Below, in pieces: positions 1,997 to 26,748 of a DNA stretch of 47,058 nucleotides. The stretch lies in the IMG/VR virus record IMGVR_UViG_3300005805_000138, positions 1-47,058 of that record; one strand, written 5' to 3'. The notes beneath the pieces were generated by a model that saw only the letters and a program-made list of their open reading frames with translations, had not been told where the DNA came from and searched no databases. How positions within the stretch are numbered: position 1 is the stretch's first letter; each line of letters begins with the position of its first letter. The position numbers and the translations under genes were made by a program. This stretch comes from a virus. Its lineage: Duplodnaviria > Caudoviricetes.

Positions 1997-2219
1997 GGGC
2001 GGACTCGGTAAATGGTTTGGCGAGAAGTGGGTCGATATTAAGACTGGTAAACCGTGCGGGCGTTCTGGTTCTGAGAAGTCCAAGCGTAGTTATCCAGCGT
2101 GTCGGCCAGCCAAAGCCGCGAGCAGAATGACGACCGCAGAGAAGCGGTCGATGGCTAGTAGAAAGACCAGTCCGGCAAGGCAGTCTTGGCCGGTGTCTCC
2201 GTCAGGGAAGCGAAAATAA
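1986..2219 (+). CDS. Small basic conserved phage protein (DUF5872-like)
   Basis: GLGKWFGEKWVDIKTGKPCGR...YPACRP motif. Confidence 0.7.
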   Translation: MASKGGLGKWFGEKWVDIKTGKPCGRSGSEKSKRSYPACRPAKAASRMTTAEKRSMASRKTSPARQSWPVSPSGKRK

Positions 2220-2392
2220 TGGCGATGACCAAACAGCAAAAGAAGATTTCCAAGGTGATGCGGGAATACAAGTCCGGCACTCTTCACGCTGGACGTGATC
2301 CCAAAGGGCCTAAGCGGGCGCCCCTCGTAAAGAACCGCAAGCAAGCCATAGCTATCGCACTGAGCGAAGCAGGCGTAAAGAGGAAGAAGTAA
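2219..2392 (+). CDS. Small basic protein (DUF6496-like)
   Basis: Starts at a TAATG overlap; KVMREYKSGTLH...KNRKQAIAIALSEA motif. Confidence 0.75.
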   Translation: MAMTKQQKKISKVMREYKSGTLHAGRDPKGPKRAPLVKNRKQAIAIALSEAGVKRKK

Positions 2393-16638: not shown

Positions 16639-18597
16639 ATGGCACTTAGTCTTGGACAACTTGTTACAGGCGGCGCTGCCTTTTCTCGTGGACAACGAGA
16701 GGCTGAACAAGCCGAACGTACAGCACGACTGAATCAACTGCAGATCGAAGAAGCCAACCGACAGAATCAACTCCGTCGTGAAATGCTTCAGGCTCCGATT
16801 GGTGAGCCGATGGGCGGTCTGCGCATGGGGCCTGCGCTTGAAACTGTTCTTCCTCCGATGGATGGAACTCTTGCTCCGTCTCGCCCACGTCCTACTCCTC
16901 CGCCTGCACCGGCTGCTGCGCCTACCGGCTTTGTAGATACAGAAATTAAAAGTGAAGAGGAGATGTTGTACGAGCGGCTTAAGCCGCGTTTGTCGTCTTG
17001 GAATCTTTCGCGTGCGCAAGGAATCGTAGGTGCCATTCCTGAGGAAACTCAGAAAACAATCGCACTTCTCAAAGATCCGAAGAACTTCTCAACGGAAGAA
17101 CTGATTGGAGTTTATCAGTACGCTAGTTATTTCGATGATTCAAACACGGCTTCTTGGTTGCGTGATGTTCTTTTGAACCGTGGCGTTCCTGACGCGCAGT
17201 TGCGCTCCATGGCTGCTCAGAGAAAGAGCGCCCGTGAAGAAGTCATGCGAATCGAAAGCGCAGAAGCAGCGCGTAAGGCCGAGGCTCAGAGACTCGCGGA
17301 ACTCCGTGGTCGTAAGACTGAGGCGGGTGTGCCTGCTGCTGGCCTTAAGGCTCAGGATGCCATCAGTCGTGTCATCCAGCGTGAAGGCGGTTACGTCAAC
17401 GATCCTGATGATATTGGTGGCGAGACTAAGTTCGGTATCAGCAAGGCAGCGTATCCCAAGTTGGATATCGCCAACCTGACCGAAGCGGAAGCGGCTCGCA
17501 TCTACAAGCGTGACTACTGGGATCGCATCAACGCAGACAAACTTCCTGCCAACATCCGTGAGATGGCGTTCGATGCTGCCGTCAATCAGGGCGTGGCTTG
17601 GACGCGTAAGGCTTTGCAGGATTCAAACAACGATCCGCAGACCTTCTTGCAGTTACGTGCGCAGCGATACCAAGACATTGCGGCTGCTAACCCGAGCCAA
17701 GAAAAGTTCTTGCAGGGCTGGCTGAACCGCCTTGGTGAGTTCGCTGGCGGTGTAATGGAGGCTGTGGTTCCTGCTGCTGTTGCGGCTCCCGCCGCTGTTG
17801 CTCCAACTGCTGAGGCTCCTGCTGCACCTGCTCCGACCGCTGGAGTTCGTCAGGCTCCGGCTGTACCTGCTGTGCTTAGCGACACGCAGAATATTCCGTT
17901 TGAGATGCAGCGCAGTATGCAGCAGCGTGAGGAGGCAGTCCGTCTTGCACGTATGTACCAGCGTGCTGGTATGGGTCAGGAGTTCATGCAGGCTCGCGCT
18001 AAAGTCATGGAACTCGACAACAACATGTACTACATGCAGGGTATGCAGGGCATCCAAGAGTTCTCGCTGACTGGAGATCCACGTCGCTTGGCGGCAGTTT
18101 GGAGCCAGTACTACGGTGCTCAGATCGGTGTTCAGCCTCGCGCCGATGGGCGCTATAACATCCTTGTGGGTGATCAGGTTGCTCGTGAAGGTCTGTCTCC
18201 GACCGAAGTTACCAGCATGGCGCGTCTGTCGTTCGATACTGGCTATCGTCAGGCTCAGCAGCAGGCCAGTGCCGAGATGAGTACGGAAGCGTTCAAGGCT
18301 CAGTTGGAAATCCAAAAGGATCAGGCCAAGCAACTTACGCAAATGATCCGTGAGATCAAGGTTGCAGAAGCTCAGGGCAACATCTCGCAGAAACTTGAGT
18401 GGTTCAAGGCCAACGCTGGTTGGGACATCAAGCCCTCGGGTGGCGGTGACGGAACTGTTATTATTCGTCCTCCGGGTGGTGCGCCGTATCTCTTTAACCC
18501 GACTCCGCGCACTATAGAAATTGACGGAGTTAAGGTGCAAACTAACTCGGCGTATCCGATTGCGGGTCTGCCGTCGCTTGGTGGACAGCCGAGGTAA
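16639..18597 (+). CDS. Ejection protein with glycoside hydrolase family 108 lysozyme domain
   Basis: EGGYVNDPDDIGGETKFGIS...IYKRDYW...FDAAVNQG and F..GWLNRL (about 17360-17735), embedded in a helical Gln/Ala-rich protein. Confidence 0.85.
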   Translation: MALSLGQLVTGGAAFSRGQREAEQAERTARLNQLQIEEANRQNQLRREMLQAPIGEPMGGLRMGPALETVLPPMDGTLAPSRPRPTPPPAPAAAPTGFVDTEIKSEEEMLYERLKPRLSSWNLSRAQGIVGAIPEETQKTIALLKDPKNFSTEELIGVYQYASYFDDSNTASWLRDVLLNRGVPDAQLRSMAAQRKSAREEVMRIESAEAARKAEAQRLAELRGRKTEAGVPAAGLKAQDAISRVIQREGGYVNDPDDIGGETKFGISKAAYPKLDIANLTEAEAARIYKRDYWDRINADKLPANIREMAFDAAVNQGVAWTRKALQDSNNDPQTFLQLRAQRYQDIAAANPSQEKFLQGWLNRLGEFAGGVMEAVVPAAVAAPAAVAPTAEAPAAPAPTAGVRQAPAVPAVLSDTQNIPFEMQRSMQQREEAVRLARMYQRAGMGQEFMQARAKVMELDNNMYYMQGMQGIQEFSLTGDPRRLAAVWSQYYGAQIGVQPRADGRYNILVGDQVAREGLSPTEVTSMARLSFDTGYRQAQQQASAEMSTEAFKAQLEIQKDQAKQLTQMIREIKVAEAQGNISQKLEWFKANAGWDIKPSGGGDGTVIIRPPGGAPYLFNPTPRTIEIDGVKVQTNSAYPIAGLPSLGGQPR

Positions 18598-18600
18598 ATC

Positions 18601-21600
18601 ATGGCTAAGGCAGGATTGTCGTTTGCTGACCCTTTCATGGATAAGGTCGGCGTAGGCCCAGCGCCCAATCCGTATGCACCACTGTCACCGACCTCAAGCA
18701 TTGGCCTTGGGAATCTCGGTCAGTCTGCTGCAGATATTGCGCTCGTTGGTGAGCGTATGGCGCGTGGCACTCAGTTCACTTTGCCTGAGATGCGACGGCC
18801 TCCTGACATTGGTATCAGCGAAACGACTGGCGAGTTGTTTGTCCAAGGTCGCAGATTTGCTGCCGATGATGCACCTGCTGCATTGCAAGCCGAAGGGTTG
18901 TTAGGTCAACCCGGAAGTGGGCAACTGCCCGCTGGCTTTACTCCGCTTGATCAGCAAGCGTACCAGCAGTACCTCCAGTCCATCCGTGAACCTTCGTTAG
19001 GTCGCCTTGCTTCCAAGTCATTTGGCCGTGGCGTTGACGTATCACAGGCTTTGTTTGGTCGTGGGTTGCAACTCGCTGGTGCTGAAGAACTGGGCGGTCG
19101 GATTGTTTCTGCTCAGGAAGAACAACTGCGGCAGACTTCTCCGTTCGAGCGTCAATTTACTGACATTGAATCTGGGCGTGATGCCGTCGAGTGGTTCGTA
19201 GCCAACTTCGCCCAGCAAGGCCCGAACATGATTGAGTCAGTCGTAACGGCTGGCCTTGGCTTTTTGGCGGGTACTGCTGCTGGTGGCCCACTTGGTGGCG
19301 CTGGCGGTGCGCTTGCTGGACTTATGGGCAAGACTGCTTTCAAGGAAAGCGTCAAGGCCGCTGCCAAAAAGAAAGCCGCAGGTGAAGCACTGTCGGCTGC
19401 TGAGAACAAACTTCTGCGTGAGGCCGCTGGTCTTGCTGGTGCAGTTAGTGCGTCGTATGCACAGAACATTGCCACGGGTGCTGCAGATATTTACGGAGAA
19501 CTTCGGGACTCCGGTGCTGACGCTGATGATATCGACGCTCGCATTAAAGCCCTCGCGGGATCGTTACCATATGCTGCACTTGAGACGCTTCCAGAATTCT
19601 TACTCGCTTCGCGATTACTGTCTGGCGCTGGTGCGCCTAGGGCGATACCTGCTGGTACTTCCGTTGGCCGTCGTGGGGCTGAGCTTCTGCGCCGTGGGCT
19701 TGTTGGCGGTGGTGTTGGCGGCTTGGCTGAGGGAACAACCGAAGCAAGTCAAGAAGCCCTCCTCCTTGGAATCTCAGGACAAGACTTAACTAGCGACGAG
19801 GGTATCAACCGCCTCATCAATTCGTTTGCCGCAGGCTTTGGTGTCGGTGGCCCAATTGGTACTGTCGCTAACCTGCGTGGTAAAGAACCGGCGAACTTAC
19901 TTGATCCGGGTAAGACCACTGAACCACCGGCTAGTACTGCGATTATTCCGTTTACTCCGCCGCAAGCACCTCCGGGGCCGGGTACTGGATTCACAATGGT
20001 TCCGGGTACAGGGATCATTCCGCAACCTGTCGGACAATATATTCCTGCAGGGGCTGGAGTTGCTGCTCCGTTGGCGTTGCCTGCACCCAGACGCGTGTTG
20101 CAGGTTCAGAGTCGTCCGGGCTTTGTGGTTGACTCGCAAGGTAACGTCCGCCCGGCTGATGCCGATGATGTGATTGTTGGTGTTACCGAAAACATCCCGC
20201 CAGTATTCCCCGGACAGCAGGGCGTGTTGGATATCTTTGGTGGTGAACCTGTCACTGCTGGAGAGATTGCTGCTCGTATGCAGCCACCGGCTGCTGCTCC
20301 TGAGGCTGTAGCGCCTAGCGCCACACCGGCTTTGAATGTTATCCCCGGACAGGGGGCGCTTCAGTTTGGTCCTGCAGCCCCAGAGGTTGCGCCGTTATCT
20401 GCGTTTGGTCAGCAGGTCGCACAAGTATCCGGTCAGTTGCAGCGTCAACGTGAGTTTGAAGCGGCACAACAACAACGTGCGGAACAAGAAGCCGCGCAGC
20501 GTGAAGCAGATTTCAACCGTGCGCTTGCTCAACAGCAACTTCAACTTGGTCAGGTCGGTGCTGCTGCACCTACGGGTGTTGTTCCTGCGCTTCCGCCTCG
20601 TCAATTTGGCCCGACTGAACCGCAACAGTTACCACTCTTTGGTGCGCGTGGATTGCCTCGCCCGTCCGGTGCTGAGCGTTTACGCCGTGGTGCTACGCCA
20701 CTGCCTGAGACTGGTCCGACTGTACCGGTTACGCCACGCGAGAGCCTGCAGGTTGCTGGCCAGTTGCCGCTCTTTACTCGAGAAGGACAGCCGTCAGTTG
20801 CTGCTCTGCGTGGTGCTGGCAAACGTCGCAAGGTTCGTCCGCAGTTGCAGAAGGGTGGTCGTCAGCGTCCGCCTGAGCCAGCGGCTAAGGTTCGTGCCGT
20901 TGCTGAGAAAGTACGCAAGCGTCAACGTGTTGATGCCACGTTGGAAGACGGCTCCCGTTATGTAGGCATCATTGATGCCAATGGTAATTTTGTCAGCGGT
21001 AAGGTTACTTACGCCGATGGTACGTCCTTCGAAGGTACGTTTGAGAATGACGCTCCTAAGAACGGTGTGTACACGGATGAGGCTGGCGAAAAACTTCAAG
21101 TAAGGAACGGAAACTATGCCATTCAAGAGCGAGGCACAGAGAAAGTACCTGCACGCGAACCAGCCGAAACTGGCGCAAAAGTGGGAGCAACAGTATCCGG
21201 TCAGCGGGAAACTCCCAGAAAGGGTGAAGCCCTCAAGAAAGGTGAGCAAAAGCCGCCCGTTCGGGAAACTGGTAAGAAAGTAGAGGAAACCAAACGCCCA
21301 AAAGTAGGGGCGGCTCCGGCCGCCTACGCAACCCCTGAGGAAGCATGGGAGGATTTAGGTCCGGATGACATTACGTACTCCGACCTTCCTGCCAAACTCA
21401 AGGCTACGTGGGATGAGAAGTTCCGAAGCAATCAACGAAATCTGACTCAAGCGTATGCGCTTAGTATCGCGGCCGATGCCCGTGACGTTATTGCCGATCA
21501 AGAAGCAGGTATCACTGAGGAAGATCAGACTGTCCGTCAAGCATTGGAAGAAGAAATTAACGTAGCGGAAACCAGTCCTAACCTCCGTACGTTTAAGGAC

Positions 21601-24600
21601 GCAATGGCTACGGTAATGTTCCATGCGTTATTCGATACTGATTCCAACAATCGTAAGACCGGTGTGATCGAACGCGCTCAGTCTTTCTTTGCCAATACGC
21701 AGTTCTCACCGCAGCAGCAAACCGCTATTGACGATGTGGTGATGATGCTGGCTAACGACCGCCTGCAGATGGAAGCCGTGTTCACTCGCGGAAACATGAA
21801 GGGGCAATACACCCCAGCGTTCTCATACTTGCGTGGTCGCGCACTGCTTCCGAACGTGACTAGTCGCATCGTGGGTTTGCCGGTTGAGGAGGCCAAACTT
21901 CTTGTTGAGGCGGGTGAGATTAAACTTACCCAGTTACCTGAGGACACGGTTGGCAAGATTACTAAGATTGCTACTACCACTGGTCGTCCGAGCGTTGGTG
22001 AGAAGATCACTAACCTCAATAAGACTACTTCGCTTACCAGTATTGTCCGCACTCCGCAGGCTGTACTTGCTAACTTCTTGGATGAACTGTTCAAGAACTA
22101 CAGACTTATCCGTGGTCTGAACTCCGAGATGGAGGTTGAGGGTAAGAAGTATCCGGGTCTGGCTGCTGCGGCCAAGGCTTTGTATTCCCGTCTTGATGAA
22201 GCAGGACGCAACTACTTCTATCGTGGCAAGCGCCTCAAGGATTTCTTCAACGAGAACGGTGAGCCTAACCTGCTCAAGTCGCAAGGTCGTTACGTCATTG
22301 TCCCCGAGGTAATTACTGCGGAGCGACAGGCTGAGATCGACAGGCTTGCCCGTGAAGAAGCACGGATGGCTGCAGAAGAACGCGCCAAGGAGCGTGAGGA
22401 ACGGCTTGAGGAGTTCAATAGAACCAAGGCAGACAAAGAAGCCTTCCCGGTTGAGGATGATTACGACAAGCCTGACGGTATGTTCTACCGTGACGATGGC
22501 ACTGACATTGGTAAAGCCATCCCTGCTGGCCGCGTGAAGATTCTGGTCACTAACTTCCTGCGAAAGCTGCGGATCAAACCGCGTACATATATTTACAGGA
22601 ATGTGGCTGATCTAAAACGAAACAATCCTGAGTTGTACAGTCGTGCAGCCGCTTCCCGTCCGAAGGGTGACTTCGATACCACGCAAGCAATGGGTTATTC
22701 GTTTGGTCCGAACGTCATCATCTTCTCTGACTTCATCCGTAGCGAACGGCAACTGAAGTTTGTACTGGCTCACGAAACCCTTGGCCACTTTGGATTCAAG
22801 GGCGTGATGTCAAAGGCTGAGTTAAATCGTGCATTAAACGATATATACGAGGCAGACTCCGACGTACGAGCTGCAGTTAACGACATGATGGCTGCGCGTA
22901 ATATATCCAAACTTGAGGCTTTGGAAGAATACGTTGCGGACTTTGCTGCCGAGATCGACGTATCCATCCTCAACCGTATCTGGAATGCACTCAAGAATGC
23001 GTTGAACAAGATCGGTCTGAAGTTCGAGGACGACGCTGCCCGCTACCTTGTGAACCTATCACGCAAGTACGTGCGCCGTGGAGACGCTGGCAACTTCCTC
23101 AGTGCAAAGACCATCGCTCAAGACTTTGAGATGATTAACTCTGCTCAGTACGAAGGCCGCTACGCTGTGTTCTCTAACGCAGACCTTGGCTCCAAAGCGT
23201 TTGCTGCCAATGCCTTGAACTATCGGTATGGCCCGATGGGCGGCTTGATGGGTGCGTACGAGAGTTTCCGCAACCGCGTGTTTGGTACGCAGAAGGATGT
23301 ACCGGGTACGGTTGCACGCATACTGGAAGAAGTTCAGACGCTGGACAACAAGGCCCGACGCAGCGAAGGCTTGAGTCTTATCTATAAGATGTTTGAGAAG
23401 CAGCAGCAGTTTGCTCGCTCGCTCTTGTCAAAGTACCAGCGCATGACCTCCTACAGCCACACTCCGGACTACGGTGTGTTCGGTGAAATCGGTGGTGTGC
23501 CGGGAGTTACGGAGGAGGAGAAGGAGAAGGCTGGTGAGTTGCTTGCATATGCCGCGCTGTTGCGTGGTACTGAAGCCACTGACCAACTGATCCGATCCTT
23601 CGACAGCCTTGTGTTCATGGATGACATGGGCAACATCACTGTTGACCCGAAGGTTCGTGACCAACTTGAGAAGGCTGGCTACGTATCTGCAGAGGAGTTC
23701 CGCAAAGGATTCCAAGTCACTCTGGCCAACGGTAGCAAGGTTAAGTATCAGTTCGACGTAGACGAAGATAGCGATATCTGGAAGGTCTACAACGAGATGC
23801 GTGCTGCCGTTAACGAGTCGGCCATCGACCTGATGCTGTCTAACTTTGAAGCATCGCAGGCTGAAGGCAAGCGCGTTATCAACCGGCTGAATGATCTGCG
23901 CCGTGGTAATAACGTATTTACTGATGATGACTTGACTGCTATCCGCAAGGCTGCAGAAACCTACAAGCGTATGCGTTACGCTGGTCAAGACGTTGCCAGT
24001 GCTGCGGTTGCGTTGGATAAAGATGCGCTCAAGCGTTCGGAAGAATTCGTCATCGCCTTTGGTCGCGCTCTGTTTAACGACAGCGTGTACAAGGTTTGGA
24101 TGAAGGAAGCGGATGCTGACCCGAGAATCGTCGAAGACCTGAAGGAATTCCAGAAGGCAGAGTACGACGACTTGCGTGCTGCACTTCCAAGTCTGCGCCA
24201 GAAGATCACTGGTAGTAAGGAAGCCAAGGAAGGTCAGTCCTTCTCAATGCAGAAAGCCATCCGAGACTTGTTCTTGTTTGACCTGCAGTCGAGGAACGCT
24301 GACTACTACGCCAAGCGTACGATCCTTGGTTCTTACGTTCCGTTTACCCGCCGTGGTACTGAGCAAGTACGTCTTGCTGCTTATGACTCCAAGGGTAATG
24401 CGGTTCGATTGGATGAGGCGACACGCGCCACACTGCCGTACTTCCAGTTCGATAGCCGTAGCGAAGCACTCAAGACTGCTGAGGATTTAGAGAAGGAGTT
24501 CGGCGGCGATAACACATGGACATTCTTGGATGACGACGGTAAGGAAGTCACCGTTAAGTTGCGTCCGGAGATATCCCGAGTTCGCCAGTCGTCTGACCTG

Positions 24601-26748
24601 ACTGAAGCCGTGAACTTTAACGAGTTCATCTACGTGCTGAACCGGCTCAACGTGAACATCACTCCGGAAGTCCGCGAGCGGATTGTTACCACGCTAACTA
24701 ACCAGAACGAACGCGCTCGTAAGAACCTGCAACGCTCTGGTACTCCGGGCTGGGATAAAGATGTTATCCGGTCTGTGTCGGAACATCTGGAAACTACTTC
24801 CCACGTAGCAGCGAAGAAACTATTCAAGCACCGTCTTGACGATATCCTGTTAAACAACAGCCTGTGGCTTGGCGATCCGCAGAAACTTGAGTCATTGAAG
24901 GCTGCAGTAGATAGCGCACGTAATGATCTGGAGCGCGCCCGCGCACAACGCGAGTACGACCAGTATGCTTATATGTATAGGTATATGCGTGCGACGGCTG
25001 GAGAGAACACCGTCGAGATTGATGGTAAGAAAGTACCGACCCTTGGTCGTGGTGAAGACTACCGCGAGGAAGCCAAGCAAGTACTCCGTTGGTATAGCGA
25101 AGCTGGAAATATTACGGACAGCACAGAAGATTTACTGTCTGGAGAGACCGGCTCAACTATCAAAATGGCCACCGTGCTTATGCAGTTGGGTGGTTCTGTC
25201 GCTACAGCGTTCATTAACTTGGCGTCACTTGCGTCGAACACCATCCCATATCTTTCCTTCTACAACCCGAAAACGGGTGTGGGTGGTGGCTACGGGTTCT
25301 CCAAGGCAAGCACTCAACTATCGAATGCTATCAAGGACATTGGTAACCCCAGCTTTGCCGATGGTGAATTTATCCAGAACCTTTTGTCCGAGGGAACCTA
25401 TGACCGGTACGGTCTGACCAGAGACGAAGCAGAGTTCCTGTTCCAGCAGACGGAAGAAGGCACACTGCAGGCGGCTCAGTTCAATGCGCTTGTAGGTACG
25501 GCACGCGGTAAGGTCTTCTCCAACCGAGCGCAAGCAGCCATTAAGTTGTGGATGGGAATGTTCTCTTATACGGAACAGATCAACCGTCGTGCCACGGCTC
25601 TGGCTGCATACCGCTTGGAAAAGGAGCGACTGCAGGCTGAAGGGATTACGGATCAGAACCGTATCGAACGTGAAGCAGCGGAGGCTGCACGCACAGCGGT
25701 GAACACCTCGCAAGGCGAGTACGCCATGTTCAACCGCCCTGAGATGGCACGCGGTAACGTGCTGCAGTACGTCTTTATGTACAAGCAGTTCGTGATCATC
25801 ACCGTGCAGTTGCTCAAGGCCATGCCTGCAGAAGGTCGGCTGTTGATGCTGGGCTTCTTGCTGCTGGTCAGCGGTATTAAGGGACTTCCGTTTGCAGAAG
25901 ACTTGATGGATGTTCTGGATACTATCCTGCAGAAACTTGGGTTGCGTACGCCAAGCGTAGAGAAACAACTCTCCGAGTGGATTGACGCTGTGGCTCCGGG
26001 CATGACCCCGTACCTGATGCGTGGTGTGCTGGATAGAACCACAGGTGCTACGTTGTCGAGCCGCTTGGGTATGGGTGACTTGCTGCCACTGACTGGAGCG
26101 TTCCGCGCTGGTGCAGACCCGATCCGAGAACTGGAGAACTTTGCTGGCCCGGTGGTCGGTGGTATCAGCGGTCTTGTTGGTATGGCCGGTGGTCTAGCCA
26201 AGTACGGTGCAGAGACTGTCGGGTTGCGGGATGACACCACATCACTTAACTCGTTGCTGCGTGACTCTCCGATTGCACTGATGCGTGCGGTGGGTGATGG
26301 CACTGCGTACCTGAGTGACGGTCGTATCACTAACACTCGCGGTCAGGTGGTGTCAGAAGATGTCGGCACGCATGTGGCTCTGGCAAGGTTCCTTGGTTTC
26401 TATCCTGCCATTGCTACTCAGCAGAACGATATCGTGCGCTTGTCCAAGTACGTGAGCGATTACGCTAAGGCGATCAAGGCTGACTACACAGCGGCATACG
26501 TTAAGGCGCGTTTGGCTGGTGACACTGATGCCATGCAGCAGACGCTAGAGAACGTACGTAACTGGAACGAAGCGGCTGCGGGTACTGGGTTGGAGATCAA
26601 CAACTTCATCCGGTCTGCTAACCGTGCTGCCCGAGAAGCCGAGCGTCCAACTGCCATGCGTTTCCTCAAGGCTGCACCCAAGAACGTGCGTCCTGAGACT
26701 TTGGAACTGCTGGAAATCTACGGTATTGAACCGGGAGAACTGCAATGA
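18601..26748 (+). CDS. Giant internal virion / large polyvalent protein (2715 aa)
   Basis: Gly/Ala-rich hydrophobic N-terminus, Pro-rich linker, MORN-like repeats (about 20930-21100), zincin-like HETLGH...EEYVA (from 22771), and a helical C-terminal region with YVPFTRRG (PLxRFG-like). Confidence 0.75.
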   Translation: MAKAGLSFADPFMDKVGVGPAPNPYAPLSPTSSIGLGNLGQSAADIALVGERMARGTQFTLPEMRRPPDIGISETTGELFVQGRRFAADDAPAALQAEGLLGQPGSGQLPAGFTPLDQQAYQQYLQSIREPSLGRLASKSFGRGVDVSQALFGRGLQLAGAEELGGRIVSAQEEQLRQTSPFERQFTDIESGRDAVEWFVANFAQQGPNMIESVVTAGLGFLAGTAAGGPLGGAGGALAGLMGKTAFKESVKAAAKKKAAGEALSAAENKLLREAAGLAGAVSASYAQNIATGAADIYGELRDSGADADDIDARIKALAGSLPYAALETLPEFLLASRLLSGAGAPRAIPAGTSVGRRGAELLRRGLVGGGVGGLAEGTTEASQEALLLGISGQDLTSDEGINRLINSFAAGFGVGGPIGTVANLRGKEPANLLDPGKTTEPPASTAIIPFTPPQAPPGPGTGFTMVPGTGIIPQPVGQYIPAGAGVAAPLALPAPRRVLQVQSRPGFVVDSQGNVRPADADDVIVGVTENIPPVFPGQQGVLDIFGGEPVTAGEIAARMQPPAAAPEAVAPSATPALNVIPGQGALQFGPAAPEVAPLSAFGQQVAQVSGQLQRQREFEAAQQQRAEQEAAQREADFNRALAQQQLQLGQVGAAAPTGVVPALPPRQFGPTEPQQLPLFGARGLPRPSGAERLRRGATPLPETGPTVPVTPRESLQVAGQLPLFTREGQPSVAALRGAGKRRKVRPQLQKGGRQRPPEPAAKVRAVAEKVRKRQRVDATLEDGSRYVGIIDANGNFVSGKVTYADGTSFEGTFENDAPKNGVYTDEAGEKLQVRNGNYAIQERGTEKVPAREPAETGAKVGATVSGQRETPRKGEALKKGEQKPPVRETGKKVEETKRPKVGAAPAAYATPEEAWEDLGPDDITYSDLPAKLKATWDEKFRSNQRNLTQAYALSIAADARDVIADQEAGITEEDQTVRQALEEEINVAETSPNLRTFKDAMATVMFHALFDTDSNNRKTGVIERAQSFFANTQFSPQQQTAIDDVVMMLANDRLQMEAVFTRGNMKGQYTPAFSYLRGRALLPNVTSRIVGLPVEEAKLLVEAGEIKLTQLPEDTVGKITKIATTTGRPSVGEKITNLNKTTSLTSIVRTPQAVLANFLDELFKNYRLIRGLNSEMEVEGKKYPGLAAAAKALYSRLDEAGRNYFYRGKRLKDFFNENGEPNLLKSQGRYVIVPEVITAERQAEIDRLAREEARMAAEERAKEREERLEEFNRTKADKEAFPVEDDYDKPDGMFYRDDGTDIGKAIPAGRVKILVTNFLRKLRIKPRTYIYRNVADLKRNNPELYSRAAASRPKGDFDTTQAMGYSFGPNVIIFSDFIRSERQLKFVLAHETLGHFGFKGVMSKAELNRALNDIYEADSDVRAAVNDMMAARNISKLEALEEYVADFAAEIDVSILNRIWNALKNALNKIGLKFEDDAARYLVNLSRKYVRRGDAGNFLSAKTIAQDFEMINSAQYEGRYAVFSNADLGSKAFAANALNYRYGPMGGLMGAYESFRNRVFGTQKDVPGTVARILEEVQTLDNKARRSEGLSLIYKMFEKQQQFARSLLSKYQRMTSYSHTPDYGVFGEIGGVPGVTEEEKEKAGELLAYAALLRGTEATDQLIRSFDSLVFMDDMGNITVDPKVRDQLEKAGYVSAEEFRKGFQVTLANGSKVKYQFDVDEDSDIWKVYNEMRAAVNESAIDLMLSNFEASQAEGKRVINRLNDLRRGNNVFTDDDLTAIRKAAETYKRMRYAGQDVASAAVALDKDALKRSEEFVIAFGRALFNDSVYKVWMKEADADPRIVEDLKEFQKAEYDDLRAALPSLRQKITGSKEAKEGQSFSMQKAIRDLFLFDLQSRNADYYAKRTILGSYVPFTRRGTEQVRLAAYDSKGNAVRLDEATRATLPYFQFDSRSEALKTAEDLEKEFGGDNTWTFLDDDGKEVTVKLRPEISRVRQSSDLTEAVNFNEFIYVLNRLNVNITPEVRERIVTTLTNQNERARKNLQRSGTPGWDKDVIRSVSEHLETTSHVAAKKLFKHRLDDILLNNSLWLGDPQKLESLKAAVDSARNDLERARAQREYDQYAYMYRYMRATAGENTVEIDGKKVPTLGRGEDYREEAKQVLRWYSEAGNITDSTEDLLSGETGSTIKMATVLMQLGGSVATAFINLASLASNTIPYLSFYNPKTGVGGGYGFSKASTQLSNAIKDIGNPSFADGEFIQNLLSEGTYDRYGLTRDEAEFLFQQTEEGTLQAAQFNALVGTARGKVFSNRAQAAIKLWMGMFSYTEQINRRATALAAYRLEKERLQAEGITDQNRIEREAAEAARTAVNTSQGEYAMFNRPEMARGNVLQYVFMYKQFVIITVQLLKAMPAEGRLLMLGFLLLVSGIKGLPFAEDLMDVLDTILQKLGLRTPSVEKQLSEWIDAVAPGMTPYLMRGVLDRTTGATLSSRLGMGDLLPLTGAFRAGADPIRELENFAGPVVGGISGLVGMAGGLAKYGAETVGLRDDTTSLNSLLRDSPIALMRAVGDGTAYLSDGRITNTRGQVVSEDVGTHVALARFLGFYPAIATQQNDIVRLSKYVSDYAKAIKADYTAAYVKARLAGDTDAMQQTLENVRNWNEAAAGTGLEINNFIRSANRAAREAERPTAMRFLKAAPKNVRPETLELLEIYGIEPGELQ
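21116..21283 (+). CDS. Nested (+1 frame) small basic protein inside the giant gene
   Basis: Hand-translated: MPFKSEAQRKYLHANQPKLAQKWEQQYPVSGKLPERVKPSRKVSKSRPFGKLVRK; TAAGGA SD at 21101-21106, 9 nt before the ATG; resembles the stand-alone MPFKS.AQR...W....KLPERV small phage proteins. Confidence 0.7.
   Translation: MPFKSEAQRKYLHANQPKLAQKWEQQYPVSGKLPERVKPSRKVSKSRPFGKLVRK

Follow-up and report, generated by a model that had tools for sequence, protein, structure and literature searches.

The window, the whole 47,058-base virus record in whose numbering all positions are given, contains a real 55-codon gene that is nested in the +1 frame of a giant ORF, is conserved and is under purifying selection. 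Near-identical giant genes carried different cargo at this site, a point absent from the earlier, sequence-only reading of the same DNA. The nested gene (family A, phrog_1375-like; 21116-21283, + strand) lies entirely within the 2715-aa ORF at 18601-26748 (+ strand), with ATG at 21116, TAG at 21281-21283 and a 9-nt spacer after a Shine-Dalgarno (SD)-like TAAGGA (21101-21106, + strand; anti-SD duplex of -6.7 kcal/mol). The sequence-only reading had proposed this SD, gap, start and 55-aa ORF wholly inside the giant gene in a shifted frame, and each particular proved exact, including the translation. The peptide of 6.5 kDa has a pI of 10.9 (15 K+R, 3 D+E) and was modeled as two predicted helices (residues 6-15 and 17-26) followed by a basic tail.

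The arrangement is not easily obtained by chance. An SD as good as that of the nested gene preceded 3.5% of 2259 control +1-frame ATGs, and one other out-of-frame ORF of at least 40 aa wholly within the giant gene (at 19514) had an SD of -6.5 kcal/mol or stronger. Of 20000 random recodings of the peptide with synonymous codons, 33 left the host frame free of stops; the average recoding introduced 4.9. An assembly slip was dismissed because a contig from a freshwater run of another study (X14), which covers 20483-21394, had no indel listed within the nested gene and because the peptide of the closest relative, L001, is identical to that of the window. The window sequence was present in lake and drinking-water runs. 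An RNA-library contig of a relative covered 21117-21245 at a depth of 2.9, a kind of record that reveals neither strand nor transcription.

The nested peptide is one of a large family. Of 9 candidates from a single-sequence search, 5 were relatives, and a profile of 71 members matched 4390 clusters at 50% identity (E 0.001 or better). The peptide-seeded set used for comparison consisted of the best 80 of 300 viral stretches encoding a relative; these loci were picked largely on the first eight residues, so the conservation of those residues is circular. The gene was nested in the +1 frame of a long ORF in 35 of the 80 loci, with host ORFs mostly of 1700-3000 aa (some clipped by the locus edge), and stood alone in 45, which bears out the earlier suggestion that the peptide represents a widespread stand-alone small phage protein. 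Of the best 150 relatives, 135 had a family-A domain that started at residue 1-3. The window peptide matched phrog_1375 weakly, at E 0.006, as did 60 of the 71 family members at E 0.1 or better (best 2.7e-6). Family A shares with PHROG 1375, a family without an assigned function whose core includes Patience gp10 and which also contains Barnyard gp9, an F-x-S-x-x-Q...W...LP pattern, and it is likely, from these profile matches, to be a distant branch of the same superfamily. It differs in that the window peptide has no basic N-terminal extension and in that the PHROG-core copies examined stand alone. Patience gp10 itself scored 5.9 bits on the family-A profile, a value reached by 4 of 1000 shuffles, and its link to family A runs via phrog_1375 and Barnyard gp9 (24 bits).

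Selection acts on the frame of the peptide. The peptide-frame dN/dS was 0.19 in nested family-A copies (12 disjoint pairs, first 38 codons), 0.18 in nested copies of family B, the alternative cargo described below (6 disjoint pairs), and 0.10 in stand-alone family-A copies (11 disjoint pairs); the giant's own conserved region gave 0.23. Host-frame values were 2.3 and 2.6 over nested A and B, like the 2.6 of the untranslated shadow frame of stand-alone copies. This frame-specific comparison had been named as a check in the sequence-only reading, and it places purifying selection in the peptide frame. Substitutions within the nested gene were concentrated at peptide codon position 3, and the window and L001 had 1 difference, silent in the peptide, in 183 nt here vs. 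85 in 1782 outside (p 0.004). An origin of the ORF as an accidental by-product of a conserved linker motif in the host frame, or as a relic in decay, is hardly credible. The second SD-led out-of-frame ORF of the giant gene and the existence of empty slots would suit such an origin; however, selection on the peptide frame and none on the host frame contradict it, as do the size of the family and a stop within 40 codons of the host-equivalent frame in 44 of the 45 non-nested copies.

Initiation signals of the nested gene were also conserved in relatives, another point that had been left for checking. The first codon was always ATG or GTG (16 and 16 in family A, window included; 12 and 5 in family B), and 32 of 36 nested copies had an SD below -4 kcal/mol. 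The median anti-SD energy was -9.0 kcal/mol for nested copies vs. -2.2 kcal/mol for the 2259 control ATGs. The four copies without a strong SD had A-rich leaders, as in the Flavobacterium phage copy, a kind of leader associated with Bacteroidota-type initiation. In 43 of 44 cases the start window had weaker folding than the giant-gene median; the start region was the least-folded stretch of its surroundings (-6.8 vs. about -11.7 kcal/mol), a difference that is partly one of base make-up. Two properties expected of an embedded gene, initiation signals of its own and purifying selection in its own frame, were both found, and translation very likely starts at 21116, with the giant gene's late mRNA as template and the nested gene's own SD and ATG as signals. 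Shifting stimulated by an SD is known from prfB, and the constant +1 relation of the frames with an SD just upstream would also fit a +1 ribosomal frameshift that joins the N-terminal 838 aa of the giant to the basic peptide, with the SD as stimulator. Such a product is very improbable: no first codon other than ATG or GTG occurs, the preceding bases vary and include no conserved slippery run, the family domain begins at the first residues of its members, and the peptide frame of the window is open for only 4 codons upstream.

The content of the site was compared in a second, host-seeded set of 80 loci, taken from 375 relatives of a stretch of the giant protein that lies about 450 aa downstream of the slot. 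The seed, which does not depend on the peptide, was the 240 aa surrounding an invariant H-E-x-x-G-H motif (22771-22788, + strand), and the seed alignment was built from nested hosts. The slot held family A in 34 loci, family B in 17 and neither in 23, and 6 loci were too short upstream; A and B were together in one slot in none of the 80. The family-A profile found 31 of the A loci, 7 of them contigs already found by peptide, and the three further A loci were L104 (cut by the contig start), L165 (divergent) and L145, whose host ORF has single-base frameshifts further downstream. Closely related giants differed in cargo. The flanks of L106 (A) and L107 (B) were about 90% identical, and the break lay about 12 nt into the small gene; L145 (A) and L144 (B) encode giants with 90-98% protein identity; and L091, L092 and L097 had A, B and an empty site, the last a clean loss. 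A and B labels were scattered over a quick tree of 63 hosts, with 13 changes each and, on well-supported branches, at least 10 changes for A and 11 for B. Swapping of cargo by recombination in the shared flanks is, on this evidence, highly probable.

Whole records were examined for 50 of the 80 host-seeded loci. Family A occurred in 24, once each, and family B in 17 (12 nested, 5 elsewhere); among these 50, no record with a nested B had A anywhere. The window and 4 other records had a nested A together with B elsewhere, so the two are not strict substitutes. No nested gene was detected in 23 of 74 adequately long relatives, and neither family was present in 7 of 30 records that were at least 90% complete, suggesting that the nested gene is dispensable or has been replaced by something undetected. 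A search of the empty loci for a third cargo family, as SD-led or Lys-rich out-of-frame ORFs, gave none that recurred, although a diverged one could escape it. None of the 45 stand-alone loci was flanked by both halves of a giant gene, as an un-fused precursor would be. A single origin of the nested copies was weakly rejected (p-AU 0.03, from 45 columns with long branches), and the well-supported branches of the nested-copy tree were compatible with one origin.

Family B is DUF6496 (PF20106), or phrog_2423. Its nested members are small basic genes in the +1 frame, with an SD and an ATG or GTG start, at the same site as A. DUF6496 occupies the same slot in 17 relatives, yet its predicted fold, with helices at residues 9-26 and 38-52, differs from that of A; similarity between the families was weak (31 N-terminal columns, probability 25.7%), the nested 55-aa peptide had no match at the Pfam cut-off for DUF6496, and a fold search of the PDB with the family-B model returned none. 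Most family-B copies are not nested (78 of 80 sampled viral copies). One of them is in the window (2186-2392, + strand; 47.6 bits for PF20106, whose cut-off is 24; 28.8 bits with the profile of nested B; E 0.011 for phrog_2423), within a cassette of basic genes at 1169-2689. The sequence-only reading had likened the nested peptide to this cassette, and the likeness holds in one respect, that family B stands alone there and fills the slot elsewhere. The cassette comprises genes for DUF6321 (1169-1429), endonuclease VII (1417-1821), DUF5872 and DUF6496; the DUF5872 gene is split into 1823-1996 (profile positions 1-39) and 1986-2219 (positions 53-98), and two more Lys-rich ORFs are present (2394-2504 and 2507-2689). 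A short family-B gene at L243:1083-1211 lies in the +1 frame of a host ORF that had no BLAST match to the other hosts, and this ORF may represent a second family of hosts for nested B. No paper on DUF6496 was found in the literature searched.

The host frame across the nested gene reads YAIQERGTEKVPAREPAETGAKVG from aa 839. Residues F, W, Y and C made up 0.1% of host residues over the nested gene vs. 5.8% just downstream. Peptide codons ending in T, which are host codons starting with T, numbered 27 of 578 (4.7%) at junctions without stop risk vs. 1042 of 3669 (28%) in the same genomes, and this depletion removes the aromatic residues and Cys from the linker. At junctions with stop risk T was absent (0 of 271), a count that is partly circular because nested copies were defined by an open host frame. 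Stop avoidance and the depletion of T-initial codons are the host-frame constraint expected around an embedded gene. The host frame is constrained in kind only, as a stop-free, hydrophilic stretch whose sequence is not conserved. Maintenance of both frames, as proposed in the sequence-only reading, is asymmetric: it extends to the sequence in the peptide frame and only to openness and hydrophilicity in the host frame. A regular expression for the AIQE..TE-like host motif, drawn from nested hosts and run on the host-seeded set, matched 18 of 31 hosts with A, 0 of 17 with B and 0 of 32 others, which bears out the suggestion that the motif is a shadow of the nested gene.

An SD with an in-frame start followed the nested stop in only 3 of 49 loci. 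Because no restart is conserved, the C-terminal half of the giant most likely needs read-through, and the giant is very probably made as one continuous polypeptide through the slot. Directly before the slot, at 20923-21114, the giant has a Gly/Thr/aromatic repeat segment that resembles MORN repeats; it had no Pfam match. Because a segment like it was present in L145 and absent from a number of other relatives, a second variable module may lie here.

The giant gene is likely to encode an internal-virion or ejection protein, a role suggested by its position and size. Tail, internal-virion and GH108 lysozyme genes precede it on the + strand, and replication genes are on the - strand. The 652-aa ORF before it (16639-18597) has a central GH108 lysozyme domain and may encode a muralytic internal-virion protein for ejection rather than a lysis protein. 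The C-terminus of the giant matched phrog_11358 and phrog_21376, families with no function assigned in PHROG; the whole protein and three parts of it had no Pfam domain at E 0.1. The HExxGH motif was invariant, with a downstream Glu-Glu, and its region had no Pfam match and nothing under E 0.28 by sequence in the PDB. Polyvalent phage proteins (PMC5512222) are similarly very large, multidomain, likely virion-delivered and endowed with a conserved His-Glu metallopeptidase-like motif; the giant differs from the proteins described there in having HExxGH rather than HEXXH and no Pfam match, and the main text of that paper holds no nested gene and no word starting with "overlap." The two or more recognizable effector domains expected of a polyvalent protein were absent from the Pfam results for the giant.

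The nested product itself has an even chance of being a late, head-associated nucleic-acid-binding protein. Stand-alone copies adjoined terminase, portal, scaffold, tail-fibre and giant genes. Neighbors were scanned for matches in 62 of 78 cases, giving 14 head, packaging or tail, 2 protease and 5 unknown assignments and 41 without a match; no DNA-metabolism family was among these 62. Patience gp10 is expressed and labelled a virion protein, with stringent spectra numbering 1 in particles, 4 at 30 min and 2 at 2.5 h (PMC4324244). Behind its portal gene, Patience has a series of small basic genes that resembles the 1169-2689 cassette, and several of these were detected in particles. Counting against the head role are the lone gp10 spectrum from particles, the indirect tie of gp10 to family A, the many relatives that do without the nested gene and the family members found amid cellular genes of Acidobacteria-type MAGs. 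By sequence, neither Patience gp10 (no match) nor family A (best E 0.055) had a convincing counterpart in the PDB. The family-A model gave no PDB fold match at E 0.001, only unnamed small phage proteins in BFVD and a best Z of 2.4 VIA-wide.

The peptide could instead act on the host, as an effector that is produced late or ejected together with the giant and binds a defence protein or machine of the cell, with swapping as arms-race turnover. The mutually exclusive and rapidly swapped cargo, the larger number of Patience gp10 spectra from infected cells than from particles, the cellular copies of the family (3 of 10 scanned Acidobacteria-type loci lie near Ku, LigD or SRAP genes) and an invariant N-terminal motif with fixed hydrophobic positions, which suggests a specific partner, all fit an effector. 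We consider this unlikely, since the neighbors are morphogenesis genes rather than early genes and the motif is nearly unchanged from Bacteroidota to actinobacterial and cyanobacterial phages, which would be unusual for host-matched effectors. Less likely still is that the small protein serves the giant as a dedicated partner (a packaging adaptor, chaperone or inhibitor) and is nested so that the two are co-expressed, like Rz1 within Rz. Linkage to giants is strong, as 35 of 80 loci are nested and an ORF of at least 1750 aa immediately precedes 8 of the 45 stand-alone copies. However, the nested hosts form 5 clusters that share no BLAST similarity (8 with stricter linkage) in addition to an unrelated Elemovirus giant, the same giant takes A, B or nothing, and many family-A copies are away from any giant. 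A complex prediction that paired the peptide with a 624-aa stretch of the giant, taken downstream of the slot, scored 0.00 ("no answer") and was counted neither way.

The reading we prefer as a whole, somewhat better than even in our judgment, is that of a translated nested gene with a nucleic-acid-binding head product, a read-through linker and an exchangeable slot. Internal initiation on the giant's late mRNA would yield the 6.5-kDa protein of pI 10.9, and the giant would pass the same bases as a disordered linker that needs only a stop-free, hydrophilic frame. The tolerance of such a linker would turn the site into an exchangeable slot, where recombination in shared flanks may swap A for B or drop the cargo. 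More tentatively, and with rather less than an even chance for its parts jointly, the slot may be a programmed feature of giant internal-virion genes in unrelated podovirus-like phages, combining a permissive linker, a fixed ribosome-binding site and interchangeable small genes in the +1 frame. Under that extension, a very large class of unannotated genes would use A and B as N-terminal modules, for loading into the head or as nucleic-acid clamps, phages would be tuned by swapping them much as with receptor-binding modules, and nesting would have more than one origin among unrelated giants.

Genes embedded in the +1 frame are known already, and what is added here is swapping between near-identical giants, clean loss and a cultured phage-host pair. 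Embedded genes are skipped by gene callers. The Rz/Rz1 spanins of lambda and T7 are alike in that a small gene, mostly missed by callers, is embedded in the +1 frame of a larger phage gene. Embedded spanins are cognate partners with membrane signals, and PMC6139136 reports no family that mixes embedded and separated architecture. Family A, unlike spanins, is nested, stand-alone or fused, has unrelated hosts and can be replaced by another family; an Rz1-type o-spanin was rejected as an identity for the peptide, which has a 2715-aa host, no Cys and no hydrophobic signal stretch. Bacillus comS within srfA is also a tiny out-of-frame gene with its own start in a giant gene, differing in being one fixed regulator of one lineage and not an exchangeable slot. 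No account of the nested gene or slot was found in the literature searched at the level of listings and abstract openings, and the available part of PMC7077304 does not mention elemo phages. Annotated genomes of dsDNA viruses reportedly contain few long overlaps (10.1101/2021.06.10.447953).

The direction of the overlap is unusual, in that the small gene is constrained and exchangeable and the giant adapts around it; the locus thereby offers a natural case in which to study how genes that already existed come to overlap. The linker is likely to be an exchangeable slot for small, probably capsid-packaged proteins that annotations have missed. A family of thousands of clusters is hidden inside giant virion genes, one of them in a cultured phage that has a RefSeq entry. 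Records of cultured Flavobacterium phages matching a family member numbered 68, and the one examined, NC_055852.1 (Elemovirus elemoA_7-9A, which infects Flavobacterium sp. BAL314), contains an unannotated 42-codon copy that begins at 54224 in the +1 frame of KNV10_gp21, a 3694-aa "structural protein" that had no BLAST match to the 36 other hosts. The nested-gene claim is testable because cultured Elemoviruses carry a nested copy, and in this system two large function-unassigned families can be probed by a single silent base change. No cultured phage was found that matches the window's own giant or has a nested B.

Beyond the viral loci, 22 of 28 matches in bacterial MAGs were Acidobacteria-type copies whose scanned neighbors were cellular genes, so family A works without a capsid. 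These 22 mostly Acidobacteriaceae loci (L172-L191, L193 and L194) form a distinct branch. A divergent nested sub-branch (L148, L154, L157, L159, L162 and L165) has GTG starts and an acidic middle, and four of its records have a DUF6496 gene elsewhere. Pfam gave no consistent family for the nested peptide and the 71 members. Identity with DUF3008, an Atlas lead only (0.83, for 15% of that cluster), was rejected because no family member had a Pfam match to it. Family A is the N-terminal module of 114-670-aa proteins in L009, L013, L018, L036 and L070. Among 70 mostly longer relatives scanned of the 150 listed, the fusion partner was DUF5661 in 6, with single cases of AAA, cupin, SAM-lyase or ParB-like domains and no common theme.

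Stand-alone copies were annotated in 023Pt_psg01 and FlowerPower and unannotated in C75C1, S-CBS2 and P-RSP2, where they begin at L082:6001, L084:5001 and L085:5001 and have 22, 36 and 40 codons, respectively. The 22-codon copy suggests that the first helix alone may be the functional core. Two nested copies, L195:8001-8129 (Flavobacterium phage) and L197:6001-6132 (Manatee Spring podovirus), had two Cys at conserved positions, a variant absent from the other members of family A.
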